Positions 3,001-9,000 of a DNA stretch of 64,000 nt are shown piece after piece. Each line of letters starts with the position of its first letter. Position 1 is the first letter of the stretch. The stretch lies in the IMG/VR virus record IMGVR_UViG_2877245776_000006; one strand, 5' to 3'. A program made the position numbers. Source of the stretch: a virus (taxonomy: Duplodnaviria > Heunggongvirae > Uroviricota > Caudoviricetes).

Positions 3001-6000
3001 TGAATAAACACCGGGAACTTGTCATGCAGATTACCGATTCATCCAGCAGTATTGCATCGGAAAAGTGATAACTGGAGAGCTTATGGCAAAAGTATTTACA
3101 CCCGAACAGCGGGAAGAACTGAAGGCACGTATTGTGGAGCTCGTGCGCCTGAATGGTCGGGGAACGTTCAGGCAACTGGCTACTGAAACCGGAGTCAGCA
3201 AGACAGCTGTCAGACGTTTGTCCAGAGAACTGGTTGTCAGTGGCGCTATATTCGACTCAGGTTATGGTTTATTCCCGTCTGATCAGGCGCGTAAGGACTG
3301 GCAAAATGCCCGCAAAAAACTCTCGAGAGCAAAGGCAAAGAAACCGGTTGTTATTGACCCTGGTCTTATCCGGGCATTACCTGATGGGGAAATCCGGCGC
3401 TACGACAGACGCTACAACATAATTTGTCGCGAGTGCCGTAACAGCGAAACGATGCAGCGTGTGCTGGCATTCTGGCGGGGGAGTGCAGAGGGATTGATGT
3501 TCTCCCCGTCGTGAATGACGGGGGCTTACGTGTTCAGAAAAGTGATTCATATAGAGGCTGAATCTGATCTTTTTTGTTCACGTCTGGCTGCCACCATTGC
3601 AGGCAGAGTGAAGGCGTAGACTAAAAACATTTCGGTAAAACTCAGGATCTGGCTTGCCTCAATTGGTGTGAAAACTTCATCTGTATGAACTGCTTTATTG
3701 GCATCAATTCGTACAATATGAGCCCATTCCTTCATCTGTTCAGTGATCAGCCCTTTTTTGTAAATCATCTGAATACGTTGCGACAGCGATTCTTTTCCTG
3801 CTTCATCGCCGAGCAGTTTTTTCGTGGAGATATCGAGGACTCTGCGACAAAGAATTACCACTGTGTCGTACCGCCTCCTCTGTAAATCCTCTTTTGCCTC
3901 AACAAAAGTACGGTCTGCAACCGGGGGCGTATATTCTGGTGCGGTAATTTTTTTGACCGCAGGATAGATCTTGCGGAAACGGTACTGGCTATTTCCTGAA
4001 ATCAGAATATCGAGGTCTTTTTTCTGGCTTTCCGCCATGGGGCCGTGATAGTGGTCTGATGGGATTTCAACAATAGCAACACCTCCTCGATGACAACTTC
4101 TGCATACAAAAGCGACGTTAAAAAGAGGTGTTTTTTCAATTTGTTTTTCGGCAAATGCCTCAATAACAGCTCGCTCTTTTAAACAGTGTGGGCATGTAAT
4201 GTCAAAGGAGACTAAACTCATGGATATTCCTCTCGAAATTAAAGAAATTAACGAAATCATTGAGGTTACTGATCGCCCCGAGTTTACCCTCATGCGTCGT
4301 TATGAAACAGGAACCGACGAACAAAAATACATCATGGTTGCAGCATTGGCTGTGATGGCGATAGAAAGGGAGCGGAGGGAAAAGGACGTAATGGTTATTC
4401 CGGCGAGAAATGATTCACCGGATTTGAGATGGCAGGATCCGGAGTGGGATGTGGCAATCCGGTGATTGATATTTCTCTGGGGTAAAGCGCCGCCAGAATG
4501 ACGGCGCGGTAGTGGAGAGTTAAACGAAGCGGATCTGGAGTTTTTTCCCTGTAGCACGGGCGAATTTTTTCAGTGTGGCAAATGATGGGCCGCTTATACC
4601 TGATGCAAGATTGCTTTCCATTCTGGTGATCGCAGTCGCTTTTGTTCCCATACGTTCAGCAACTTCAGCCTGGGTTAAGCCTGCTTCTTTTCGTGCTGCC
4701 AGCATTTCATCAAGTAGTGCGAATTCGTCGGCGATGGCGTCGTATTCTGCTTTGAAAGCCGGATCCTCCATCCATTTGGCTGCCATTTCGTCGTGTGTCA
4801 TGGTAGGTGTAATGCGTTTACCAGTCATGCTTAACCTCCTTCATTCTGGCTTCAGCTTTTTTGCGTTCGGCTGGCGGTGTTTTCTGCGTTTTCTTAATGA
4901 AACTATGCAGCATAATGATGCGTTTCCCTGTCAGAGTGCAGTAAAAAACACGTGCAATCCCATCGTTGCCTTTAATTCTGAGTTCGAAAAGCCCATCACC
5001 AAAGGCGCTGGTATGAGGTTCTCCGAGATTGCTGCCGTATACCTTCATACGTTCAATGAGATGTTTGTATCGGACACGCATACTCAATGGAAGCTGATCG
5101 ACTTCCAGCCGGACCTCTTCACTGTAGTATTCGATAGTGTAGTTCATAGGTATCAACATAACAAATTTGTTATATGTATTCAAGGACTGTACTGTGTTGA
5201 CGACAACACATATCAAGCAGACAGTCATGCTGTTAGATCACGGTTTGCTTGATGGAAGGTTGACAACTCATAAGAAATTAAATTTATTAATAAGACTCAT
5301 TAAATTTTATGTTAGATTTGCAAGATGACAGGAAACAAAATATTAGGAGCAATAAAAAAAACAGGAGCAGCATTAATGTTTATTATTCTGCTGATCTTTG
5401 TAAAGATAATTGCAACTGAGTTCGGTGATAATAAAATTGATGATATTTTATCAAACAAAGAAGATGCAGATAAAATTGCCTCATACTTAAAAAATGAACT
5501 ATCCAAGAAAAAATTCCCTATTAAAGTAGATGATTATACTACATGGATTGCTGCAACCGTAGAAGGAAATACACTTAATCATTACTATAATATTTATGGG
5601 ATTAATGAAGATATGTCGCCATTTTTTGATGGTGAAGAGATTAAAAACTTAATGAGCCTAGAAATACAAAAAAAATTAAATTCTGTCGAGTGTAAAATGA
5701 TGCAGGAGTATAATTATACATTCAAATATCATTATAACATAATAAACACGAAATATAATGACTTAGTTATAATTATGACAAAGAGTAATTGTCCACAATG
5801 AAGGGGATGCATATGGATAACTCAAAACTGAAGAAAATGCTTATTGCATCTATTATCGGAAACATACTTTTAGTTTTTTTAAATATTCAAGTGTTCAACC
5901 AAAAACACTCCTCAAACGTCATAGACACACAAAAAAAAGAGGATAAAAGTAAGTGGACTGATATAGAAAACATTTATCCTGTGTGTAAGGTTCACAATAA

Positions 6001-9000
6001 TAACACATCTTATAGCGGGCAATTAAAGCCAGAATGGTACTGTTATTGGTTTAATCCAATAACATACAAATACACATATTTAGAAAAGACTCTGATAACA
6101 TCACCCAGTGATGGTGTTTTCTATTTTTCGAACGAGTATACACCAACTATTGAATTACGTCATAAAGCAAGTGACATAAGTGTTCCTGTTGATATATATG
6201 CCAAACAATTATTAGACCGACTGGAACGTGAATCAAATGCTAAAATTTTTCTACCTAAGGAGGCCAAACAGATAAAAAGTAAAAAGTTGGAAAAATGGAC
6301 TTCATTTATTACAGTTATTCCCAAAGACAATTCAAAGGATATAGAGACTTTTCTTTTATCTTTCATTAAAAAGGAAGAGGTTTTATGGACGGTTTTCGTT
6401 GAATACCCAAATGATGATAAAAAGTACTGGTACATTGATGAGAAGACATTTGATCTAATAGATAAGATAACCAGTACTTTTTGATGCGACTATCTGGCGG
6501 GGATTAAATACTATATGCACCGTATTTATTATCCCCTTTTTCTGACGGGATACAGTACATAACGAACAATATAAAGCCACCAATATACGGGATGCACCAG
6601 ATAAACAAGTACCAGGCACTTAACCCAATATCATGGAGTCTGCGGACTTTCAATGTAATGGATGGAATAATCGTAGCTAATACGTAAACGCAAGGTATAT
6701 AAAACCCATAACTAATGCCAGTATTATCTAATGTATATCCGATAAAAAAAAGAACTCCCAAGAATATTAAATTAAACAGATAATACCACCAGAACTCTCT
6801 TCGACTGGCTCGCCCTGAATAATTGAAGTAGTTATTAAAAAGAACATCCGTATACCATGCCAAAGGGGATTTTCTCATGCTTTTATACTCCAAACATTAA
6901 TATTAAATTGATGATTATTAACAACTTAAAACAACGTTAATGTTTTACCTAATAGGGTGTCAACATCTACACAAGGAAATGTTGACACACCACACATTCT
7001 GTCGGATACTCTGCGTCAGGTGCTCAAAACACCTTAGCAAGTAGCGGTTACCGCGCCCGACAGACATGCGGTTTTTTTGTGTCCAGTCTTCTTGGTTTAT
7101 GACCGGGCGTGCGGCTAATACAATACCAGCAATGGGAATATGCCCGCCGACTACTTGCGGTTTTGAGCGCCCGGTCACCCTCTCAAAAGGGGTAAATCAA
7201 AATATCAAGTAGGACACAAAGCATGAAAACCATCTCCGTGGAGTCCCTCTCCATAATTTCATTTAGTAATATACCTGTGGTGACTACAGAGCTTCTTGCC
7301 AGCTTATATGGCACAGAACCAGATTACATCCGAAAAAATTTCAATCGGAATTCTGGACGATTTGTTATCGGTAAGCACTACTTTTTACTTGAGAATGAGG
7401 AGTTGCGCGAATTTAAGCACAGCATGTCTTTAAGACCTTCTGTGAAAATCGCCCGTAACGTTCGCTCCCTCATCCTCTGGACAGAACGCGGAGCAGCCCG
7501 TCACGCAAAAATGCTCGAAACTGATCAGGCATGGGAAGTGTTCGAAAAACTGGAAGACTGCTATTTCAGCCAGGGAAAAACAACACAAACCGAACAGCAG
7601 TCGCATATTCAGCCACAATTCACAGCCGAGGAAATCATCCTCCTTTGCTACATGCAGCTCTGGATGGAAAAAGCCCAGGGCATCAGCAAACACCTGTACC
7701 CCATTATGAAAGAGCTGAACTCCTCATACACGAACAAGCTGTATGACATTGCGTTTGAGACTATCTACATGGTGACGAAGAACAGAGACGCGCTACTGAG
7801 GGAGGTAACACGTCTCGACATGTCAAGTTCCGTTGTCCAGAGGGCCATGCCAATGCTGAAAAGCCTGCGGGCAAGACAATTTGAATTCTGAAACCAAAGG
7901 AGCTTCGGCTCCTTTTTTGTTGGGAAAATCCAGTGAGAGGGAATAATGAACCAGACTATCTTCCTCCGAAGTAAGCAGCAGCAACAATTCGCCATTAACG
8001 CAATCCTTGCAACAACTCTCGATAAAGACAAACCCGTTACGATCCGCATCACCGATTACAAGCGTAATCTCGCTCAAAATGCAAAATTTCACGCGATGGT
8101 CGCTGATATCTCCCGACAGGTTCAGTGGTGTGGCAGGTGGCTAAAACCAGAACAGTGGAAAGTTTTGTTGATCAGCGGTCATGCCGTGGCGACAAAACAG
8201 GAAGCCGATGTTTTACCTGGTCTTGAAGGCGAATGCGTCAATATCCGCGAAAGCAGTGCGCAGATGAGCGTGAAGCGTATGGCAAGCCTGATTGAGTACA
8301 CAACTTCCTGGGCTGTGGAGCAGGGGGTCAGATTTACCGACAGGAGGTACGAATGAGACGACAGCGACGAAGCATTACCGATATAGTCTGTGAAAACTGC
8401 AATTACCTTCCAACGAAACGCTCCCGAAATAAACCCAGGCCAATCCCCAACGAATCTGATGTAAAAACCTTCAATTATACGTCTCACCTGTGGGATGTCC
8501 GGTGGCTCAGACGTCGTGCAAGATTTAATAGTCACTCCGGATAGTTCAATGTACGAGGAATAAGATGATGGCAAACCTACGCAAAGAAGCGCGTGGCAGA
8601 GAATGTCAGGTACGGATTTACGGCGTATGCAATGGCAATCCTGAAACTACAGTTTTGGCGCATTACCGAATAGCTGGAATTTGCGGAACGGGAATGAAGC
8701 CAGATGACCTGTTGGCTGCATGGGCCTGTAGTGACTGCCATAATGAAATCGATCGCCGTACTCGCATTCTCGACAACAACGACTCCAGACTTTACCACCT
8801 GGAAGGCGTGATCAGGACGCAGGCGATACTGCTGAAGGAGGGGAAAATTAAGTCATGAATGAATATGAGTTTGTGCTTCCCTGGCCGCCGACGGTGAATA
8901 CCTACTGGCGAAGACGGGGAAGCCAGTACTACATCAGCGATAAAGGCCAGAAATACCGAAAAGACGTACAGCAAATTATCCGGCAACTCAGATTAGACAT

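Follow-up and report, generated by a model that had tools for sequence, protein, structure and literature searches.

Setting and architecture of the locus

We investigated two adjacent genes, g1 and g2, in a 64,000-nucleotide stretch of Caudoviricetes DNA (IMG/VR record IMGVR_UViG_2877245776_000006), which in its full length is called the window below. An earlier reading of the same DNA (the original prediction) had described the pair as an AT-rich, translationally coupled operon for membrane-anchored proteins of no recognized family, and had suggested recently acquired cargo, possibly serving superinfection exclusion or defence. Our comparison revealed that g1 and g2 are real genes under purifying selection with conserved linkage, and that the conserved unit is a trio consisting of g1, g2 and a convergent DUF805 gene, with DUF805 as its constant member. 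The conservation of these three genes as a recurring unit is new to this study. The features of the locus are listed in Table 1.

Table 1. Features of the g1/g2/DUF805 locus and its flank in window coordinates
Feature	Coordinates	Strand	Remarks
g1	5325..5801	+	158 amino acids (aa); N-terminal signal anchor or, possibly, cleavable signal peptide; predicted periplasmic alpha/beta domain
g2	5813..6484	+	223 aa, predicted bitopic; an in-frame alternative start at 5798 adds 5 residues and an ATGA overlap
Gene for polytopic inner-membrane protein DUF805	6504..6878	-	124 aa in the call of the Prokaryotic Genome Annotation Pipeline (PGAP); TTG at 6893 would give 129 aa
Candidate -35 hexamer TTGACA	5260..5265	+	60 nucleotides (nt) upstream of the g1 start
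Shine-Dalgarno-like GAAGGGG for g2	5800..5806	+	Overlaps the g1 stop codon; AAGG kept in locus L004
Type II toxin-antitoxin module	4520..5228	-	Gp49/HigB-like toxin 4818-5159 (PGAP) or to 5228; HTH antitoxin 4520-4828
DUF4145 gene	3547..4293	-	Pfam DUF4145, E 4.8e-9; left end of the mobile block

Bases 1-25000 of the window were 100% identical to Shigella phage 75/02 Stx (KF766125), starting from position 9831 of the latter, and g1 and g2 were 100% identical to the matching open reading frames (ORFs) of 75/02 Stx and Shigella phage POCJ13. The local gene order was obtained from a near-identical E. coli prophage with stx1a downstream. Upstream of g1 it comprises replication genes, DUF1627 and DUF977 (plus strand), DUF4145 (minus strand), a small ORF (plus strand) as well as an HTH antitoxin and a toxin named RelE/ParE-type by PGAP (both minus strand), while g1 and g2 (plus strand) are followed by DUF805 (minus strand), an ORF6N antirepressor (plus strand), ninB, ninE, rusA, ninH, Q and stx1AB. 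This order places the gene pair in the nin region of a Stx1-converting lambdoid phage.

Besides the 158-aa frame of g1, the plus strand holds an ORF ending at 6484, with possible starts at 5789, 5798 and 5813. The longest stop-free run in the region measured 231 codons, compared with a mean of 72 and a maximum of 142 in 2000 shuffles. The marked AT-richness noted in the original prediction was evident: the GC content was 27.3% for g1, 31.2% for g2 and 35.6% for DUF805 versus 49.5% for the window, and third-position GC was 24% and 31% for g1 and g2 versus 52-56% in ninB and rusA. The low-GC island extended from about 5200 to about 7000 and thus spanned the convergent DUF805 gene as well. Hydrophobicity analysis likewise bore out a single N-terminal hydrophobic segment, with exactly one in each product. 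The Lys/Asn/Tyr-rich character ascribed to the soluble domains was present in the sense that both products are high in K (12-13%), I (10-13%) and N (6-9.5%), with Y at about 6%; the K/I/N-rich composition is what AT-rich codons yield.

A recurring trio in lambdoid prophages

The DUF805 neighbor was identified by its match to PF05656 (E 1.7e-30, 106.1 bits against a gathering cutoff of 25.7, profile positions 1-111 of 111). It adjoined g1 and/or g2 in the window and at loci L002, L004-9, L011, L012, L018 and L024, at 43-98% identity. Four lineages carried the full trio, arranged as g1(+) g2(+) DUF805(-); they comprise the window type, another type from E. coli (L004-L009 plus JNEC-KY176) and two from Salmonella enterica (L011/L012 and L018). 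Identities between the Salmonella and window types amounted to 28-29% for g1, 28% for g2 and 45-47% for DUF805, and the Salmonella homologues matched the same PHROGs as g1 and g2. Partial versions were also encountered, with g1 and DUF805 lacking g2 at L002 and L003 (g1 66% and DUF805 80% identical), g2 and DUF805 lacking g1 at L024, and a truncated g1 alone at L014 and L015. Of the claimed two-gene operon, the tight linkage of g1 and g2 was borne out; the unit itself is the trio, and the co-occurrence of the pair, which recurs across lineages, is broken wherever g1 or g2 stands alone with DUF805.

In every lineage the cassette had a GC content of 27-36% inside phage DNA of 45-50% GC, and synonymous sites were saturated between the E. 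coli and Salmonella types. Low GC held over such divergence indicates that the AT-richness is old, maintained and not a sign of recent arrival, and the recent acquisition that had been proposed does not follow from base composition. The designation as cargo, on the other hand, was borne out by position, as one block occupies the nin region in the window and adjoins the integrase gene in other E. coli prophages. This block of about 4.3 kb, consisting of DUF4145, the small ORF, the toxin-antitoxin module, g1, g2, DUF805 and the antirepressor, moves together; outside the nin region its E. coli copies were located inside the integrase end, beside FMN_red/YccJ genes or tRNA-Arg, and JNEC-KY176 carries the block in identical order, ending in Ant, near int and tRNA-Arg. 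The cassette is thus mobile between prophage positions.

The slot upstream of and divergent from g1 was occupied by different selfish or defence modules in different lineages: Gp49/HigB-HTH in the window (toxin Pfam Gp49, E 3.4e-25; antitoxin HTH_3, E 3.4e-11), RelE PF06296-HTH at L011, HigB PF05015-HTH at L014, VapC-Phd at L018 and a restriction-modification system at L002, so that four toxin-antitoxin families were found beside the cassette. Together with DUF4145, these neighbors lend the surroundings a defence-like character, in line with that part of the original prediction. With such neighbors, tightly linked genes for small membrane proteins could be taken for a toxin-immunity or toxin-antitoxin-like pair of their own, one member being a membrane-damaging effector, and the locus of a remote g1 relative (P0010, see below) holds an AHH nuclease toxin gene. 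If one gene were needed to neutralize the other, however, one of the two single-gene states, g1 lacking g2 (L002, L003) or g2 lacking g1 (L024), should be lethal, and neither protein has a toxin-like domain. The occurrence of each gene without the other renders this relation very unlikely.

Selection and allele exchange

Ratios of nonsynonymous to synonymous divergence (dN/dS) ranged from 0.3 to 0.45 for g1 and from 0.30 to 0.41 for g2, over pairs whose identity ranged between 92% and about 30%. For DUF805 values of 0.08-0.76 were obtained, the highest coming from a nearly identical pair. As judged from these comparisons, all three would be expressed, constrained and fast-evolving proteins.

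Comparison of the window with L004 revealed a different pattern for g2, which was 52-56% identical between the two loci compared with 92-98% for its neighbors. Synonymous divergence was 0.89 in g2, 0.08 in g1 and 0.013 in DUF805, and thus about tenfold higher in g2. Since the synonymous divergence of g2 was raised alongside an ordinary dN/dS, the pattern is explained by replacement with a divergent allele via recombination, while diversifying selection acting on g2 in place was rejected on the same grounds.

The possibility that g1 and g2 are junk or decaying ORFs in AT-rich DNA was also considered. Their orphan status and rarity, the relaxed dN/dS of 0.3-0.45 and the loss or truncation observed at L014, L002 and L024 would fit such a view, which we nevertheless regard as the most improbable of all, because the ORFs are intact across saturated synonymous divergence, keep their cysteines and motifs, reach lengths that none of the 2000 shuffles attained and, in the case of g1, yield a confident fold.

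Translation start of g2

The ATGA stop/start overlap from which translational coupling had been proposed is present at 5798-5801, and its upstream ATG is in frame. Conservation pointed to a different start. The equivalent of ATG 5813 (MDNSKLKK...) was the start in the PGAP call and in all homologues, including the 52%-identity allele, and the PHROG profile match began at residue 6 of the long form. An AAGG(G/A) Shine-Dalgarno sequence lies 6-8 nt ahead of ATG 5813, and g2-like starts were preceded by AAGGA at L024 and by GGGGGG at L011 and L018. In the junction between window and L004 the least conserved bases were those from the stop codon to ATG 5813. The distance from the g1 stop to the g2 start was 34-35 nt in the Salmonella loci, and L024 has no g1 upstream at all. 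The gene most likely comprises 5813-6484, with an 11-nt spacer after the g1 stop in place of an overlap. ATGA coupling is not a conserved feature, although the adjacent genes are probably co-translated in some fashion.

A predicted pilotin-like fold in g1

The start of g1 at 5325 was favored because Met18, the start in the POCJ13 annotation, is replaced by Ile in P0002. The hydrophobic segment of the product spans approximately residues 14-30 and is flanked by charges of +3 on its N-terminal and -4 on its C-terminal side. No lipobox is present in the N-terminus MTGNKILGAIKKTGAALMFIILLIFVKIIATEF, and the first cysteine of the protein is residue 123. Possibly, g1 carries a cleavable signal peptide with the cleavage site between IIA and TEF. 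Cys123 and Cys156 were invariant in the E. coli-type sequences and both were present in P0008; the first of the pair was also found in P0009 and P0011, while P0010 and P0012 have neither. The remote relative P0012 is a lipoprotein with the lipobox LASC and the only relative to have one.

An AlphaFold2 model of g1 built from an 8-sequence alignment reached a mean predicted local distance difference test score (pLDDT) of 78, with 80-92 over residues 60-158. Structurally the model came closest to PA3611 of Pseudomonas aeruginosa and to the pilotin AspS, the latter also in its complex with GspD (5zdh). The model matched the fold of the PA3611 structure 3npd at a sequence identity of 12%; in Pfam this protein belongs to the 'quorum-sensing-regulated virulence factor' family. 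The order of elements in the model (alpha1, beta1-3, alpha2-3, beta4-5 and a short C-terminal helix) agrees with the published description of AspS, and the cysteine pair, running from helix to C-terminal end, may parallel that description as well (PMC3542185). The predicted fold is robust. At the sequence level nothing corresponded to it: none of the eight g1-family members had a true match in Pfam at E up to 10, weak hits being taken as noise, and a profile search of the PDB sequences did not retrieve 4ftf, 5zdh or 3npd. The earlier statement that no family is recognizable consequently applies to sequence (Pfam, NCBIfam and PADLOC) and is qualified by the predicted PA3611/AspS pilotin fold of g1.

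AspS clamps a short C-terminal segment of a further envelope protein, the secretin S-domain; for PA3611, its closest structural relative, which is exported and not a lipoprotein, a secretin-binding role in the periplasm has been suggested (PMC3542185). The differences between g1 and these proteins are considerable. AspS (GspS-beta or YghG; 4ftf, 5zdh) is an outer-membrane lipoprotein sorted by the Lol pathway and encoded with a type II secretion system of the Vibrio type, whereas g1, with an anchor that stays uncleaved or else an ordinary signal peptide, lacks a lipobox, is a prophage moron, shows no profile-level sequence similarity to AspS and is accompanied by gsp genes at none of its loci, which are accessory regions of lambdoid prophages. 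PA3611, in turn, is chromosomal and not phage-borne, shares 12% identity with g1 and has no Pfam counterpart among the g1 relatives. We therefore refrained from classing g1 as a pilotin, because it is without sequence relation, without a lipobox and away from secretion genes; g1 is predicted to be a phage-borne sequence orphan that represents an anchored or secreted variant of the AspS/PA3611 fold.

These structural matches raise the question of whether the cassette is directed at the host. As a conversion factor, g1 would imitate a pilotin at the inner membrane, bind a secretin S-domain (GspD-beta of the type II secretion system, HofQ or the pIV type of filamentous phages) or a similar C-terminal helix and, with g2 and DUF805 as partners, alter secretion, piliation, DNA uptake or envelope stress in the lysogen. 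The match to 5zdh, the secretin binding of AspS and that proposed for PA3611 (PMC3542185) as well as the occurrence in Stx prophages of enteric pathogens are consistent with such a role. It is nonetheless unlikely, considering that g1 is unrelated in sequence to the AspS and PA3611 families, has no lipobox and hence no Lol targeting to the outer membrane, is not linked to secretion genes and is rare in E. coli, and that a fold of this kind may serve as a small, general-purpose module for binding.

The g2 protein

The transmembrane helix of g2 comprises residues 9-28 with flanking charges of +2 on both sides. Its best-conserved feature, Cys58...Cys77-Y-W-[FV]-N-P-I-T-x-K-Y, follows directly after the membrane-proximal linker. 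The C-terminal domain is predicted to be beta-rich; the fold search, including a comparison with VirB8 and NTF2-like proteins, used a low-confidence model (pLDDT 49). A paralogous relationship between g1 and g2 was rejected (hhalign probability 2%), as was, on comparison, a relationship of g2 to the YecR-like gene that replaces it at L014.

Rarity and remote relatives

Both proteins were full-length members of PHROGs, g1 of phrog_19308 (E 1.6e-107) and g2 of phrog_21161 (E 7.7e-157), while DUF805 corresponded to phrog_12855; all three are of unknown function. Neither g1 nor g2 belonged to a family in Pfam or NCBIfam, PADLOC returned no family for g1, g2 or DUF805 at E up to 1, and the structural search against BFVD produced no significant match. 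With PHROGs of unknown function as their only matches, both proteins are near-orphans. Several weak hits were dismissed as noise: XAC2610_fam (E 0.047 and 14 bits, below the cutoff of 35), T4_Spackle (E 0.037, in a single family member only), EnY2 and Integrin_B_tail, DUF7412 (E 0.024), as well as MotB-related and FliL hits among PDB sequences, which aligned mostly or wholly to the transmembrane segment.

A word-index search of 5.8 billion clustered proteins found close relatives only, with two related clusters for g1 and two plus a fragment for g2. Five remote relatives of g1 were gained when its profile was run exhaustively with HMMER against 1.84 billion representatives; P0013 and P0014 from the same search are repeat proteins and were regarded as spurious. 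The cassette DNA was present in two deposited phages (75/02 Stx and POCJ13) and absent from the plasmid collection and, in two scans, from the GTDB species-representative genomes. A metagenome scan revealed no further lineage, and neither the phage nor the E. coli collection contained DNA matching the Salmonella type. Homologues were confined to lambdoid prophages, those of E. coli/Shigella and, with an identity of about 28%, those of Salmonella. The remote relatives of g1 lie outside prophages, which suggests a fold family wider than phages.

Of these remote relatives, P0010 was located in a metagenomic locus together with an AHH-nuclease polymorphic-toxin protein, and the P0012 gene adjoins a sugar epimerase/dehydratase gene (loci: L020 4001-4423, 7522-8423; L019 112-516). 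The DUF805 gene is unannotated in the deposited 75/02 Stx and POCJ13 genomes and called in RefSeq annotations of E. coli. The family is scarce in phage records, with 13 records, four of which are 75/02 Stx and POCJ13.

Expression signals

The sequence TTGACA upstream of g1 was shared without change by the window, L004 and L002, the locus with 66% identity. In the Salmonella lineages it occurs 67 nt ahead of the g1-like gene within a conserved segment of about 60 bp, and L024, in which g1 is deleted, keeps the TTGACA segment fused straight to g2. We consider this a candidate for an own promoter of g1-g2. As g1 and g2 always share the direction of the surrounding early operon, transcription is expected to read through into them once the prophage is induced. 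DUF805 and the toxin-antitoxin module invariably run antisense to this operon.

A tentative role in superinfection exclusion

Our preferred but tentative interpretation is that the cassette excludes superinfecting phages after adsorption, at the ejection or translocation step. It was prompted by the architecture of the proteins, their moron status, the company of the cassette and the exchange of g2 alleles. In the mechanism that we infer, which extends to topology, disulfides, expression, partners and the exclusion phenotype, g1 and g2, as accessory ('moron') genes of a Stx1-converting lambdoid prophage, would be transcribed together. Both proteins would be inserted N-in/C-out in the inner membrane, g1 possibly being freed by signal peptidase, and each would expose a small, probably disulfide-bonded periplasmic domain. 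The single N-terminal hydrophobic segments, the flanking charges of g1 and the lipoprotein nature of its distant relative P0012 speak for an envelope location. The g1 domain with its AspS/PA3611 fold may act as a clamp-type binder in the envelope, while g2 would contribute an unrelated beta-rich domain whose alleles are recombined. Together with DUF805 they would constitute a persistently AT-rich envelope cassette that moves with the toxin-antitoxin and DUF4145 block, and protein binding in the periplasm or inner membrane would shut an entry route, be it ejection, genome translocation or a host envelope component.

HK97 gp15, T4 Imm and Spackle, P1 Sim, P22 SieA and lactococcal Sie2009 are small exclusion proteins encoded by morons that have an N-terminal transmembrane segment or signal peptide and act at the inner membrane or in the periplasm, and such proteins are typically orphans and AT-rich. 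The architecture of g1 and g2 is alike; in contrast, there is no sequence similarity and the cassette has three genes including DUF805.

A number of observations weigh against exclusion. No sequence or profile match to catalogued exclusion or defence proteins was found in PADLOC, PHROGs, Pfam or NCBIfam. No particular ligand follows from a fold shared with AspS/PA3611, and the model of g2, derived from a 3-sequence alignment, was poor (pLDDT 49). The toxin-antitoxin and restriction-modification company may reflect nothing but a shared insertion hotspot for morons. The cassette DNA was present in 8 of 5426 complete E. coli genomes, which would make any benefit narrow. A consensus scan near g1-g2 yielded neither an acceptable -10 hexamer nor a terminator, and thus no consensus promoter. 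Finally, g1-g2 are codirectional with the surrounding early operon in each context, from which they may be expressed mainly in lytic growth and not in the lysogen.

The last two points lead to an alternative in which g1 and g2, read by transcription continuing from PR/PL, are helpers of the lytic cycle with a late envelope role such as guarding progeny against readsorption or ejection into lysing cells or tuning of lysis or release, while DUF805 would be a moron of the lysogen. The pair always follows the early operon, be it with replication, nin and Q genes as in the window and in Salmonella or from recT to int as at L004, DUF805 and the toxin-antitoxin module always run antisense, and a clear promoter or terminator of its own is missing. 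We consider this quite unlikely given that TTGACA is conserved upstream even where g1 is deleted, that the phage has a complete lysis cassette elsewhere and that most related Stx phages lack the trio and are viable. A two-component spanin of the Rz/Rz1 type was rejected as well, as neither protein has a lipobox and the pair, lying in the nin region, precedes the holin and lysozyme genes by about 9 kb.

Exclusion and the pilotin fold could also be combined. As a pilotin mimic tethered to the inner membrane, g1 would catch in the periplasm a C-terminal S-domain-like helix, be it of a secretin or of the ejection or tape-measure protein of an incoming phage, and hold it at the wrong membrane, with g2 as exchangeable specificity subunit and DUF805 as membrane platform, and the trio would represent a new class of envelope exclusion based on the fold of a secretion-system chaperone; this is speculative and improbable as a whole.

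Envelope-acting morons of prophages are poorly charted, most catalogued defence systems being cytoplasmic, and the cassette resides in Stx1-converting phages of Shigella sonnei, S. flexneri and some strains of Shiga toxin-producing E. coli. An exclusion function or an effect on secretins, if true, would shape which phages spread Shiga toxin genes as well as the behavior of the lysogen, would open a functional approach to DUF805, for which we found no characterized function, and would bring the AspS/PA3611 fold into phages and into proteins anchored in the inner membrane. Should the cassette prove inert, it is one more rare orphan moron. We regard it as a modestly interesting uncharacterized cassette with one new structural lead and not as a demonstrated new system.

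Neighboring genes and additional elements

A perfect 16-bp palindrome, ATAACAAATTTGTTAT, occupies 5158-5173, where the toxin gene starts in the PGAP call, and probably serves as operator of the antitoxin. Control of g1-g2 by this operator was considered and discarded, as there was no evidence for it and the palindrome lies about 90 bp from the candidate -35 hexamer. The DUF4145 gene had a weak PADLOC match to the candidate defence protein PD-T7-4 (E 1.5e-3), and a homologue with 40% identity was found near the truncated g1 of L014. ARAGORN detected no tRNA gene within the window.

Between DUF805 and the ORF6N/P22AR-C antirepressor gene (7223-7891), a strong Rfam match to sRNA-Xcc1 (RF02221) was detected at 7101-7184 on the plus strand, about 40 nt upstream of the antirepressor (79.6 bits versus a gathering score of 53). 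The same element occurred at L002 (7141-7224), L004 (7341-7429), L014 (3060-3150), L018 (8112-8196) and L024 (7615-7699), and in these five further loci it precedes AntA, Bro-N or ORF6N-type genes. It was not found at L011, which has no such antirepressor gene. The element looks like a conserved, structured 5' leader or small RNA tied to antirepressor genes and not to the cassette. In the Salmonella-type loci (L018 7823-8334, L024 7472-7837) a stretch of about 500 bp that is not AT-rich extends from DUF805 to a Bro-N-like gene. Its ORFs look like chance translations, it terminates in the sRNA-Xcc1 element, and it may hold further non-coding RNA.

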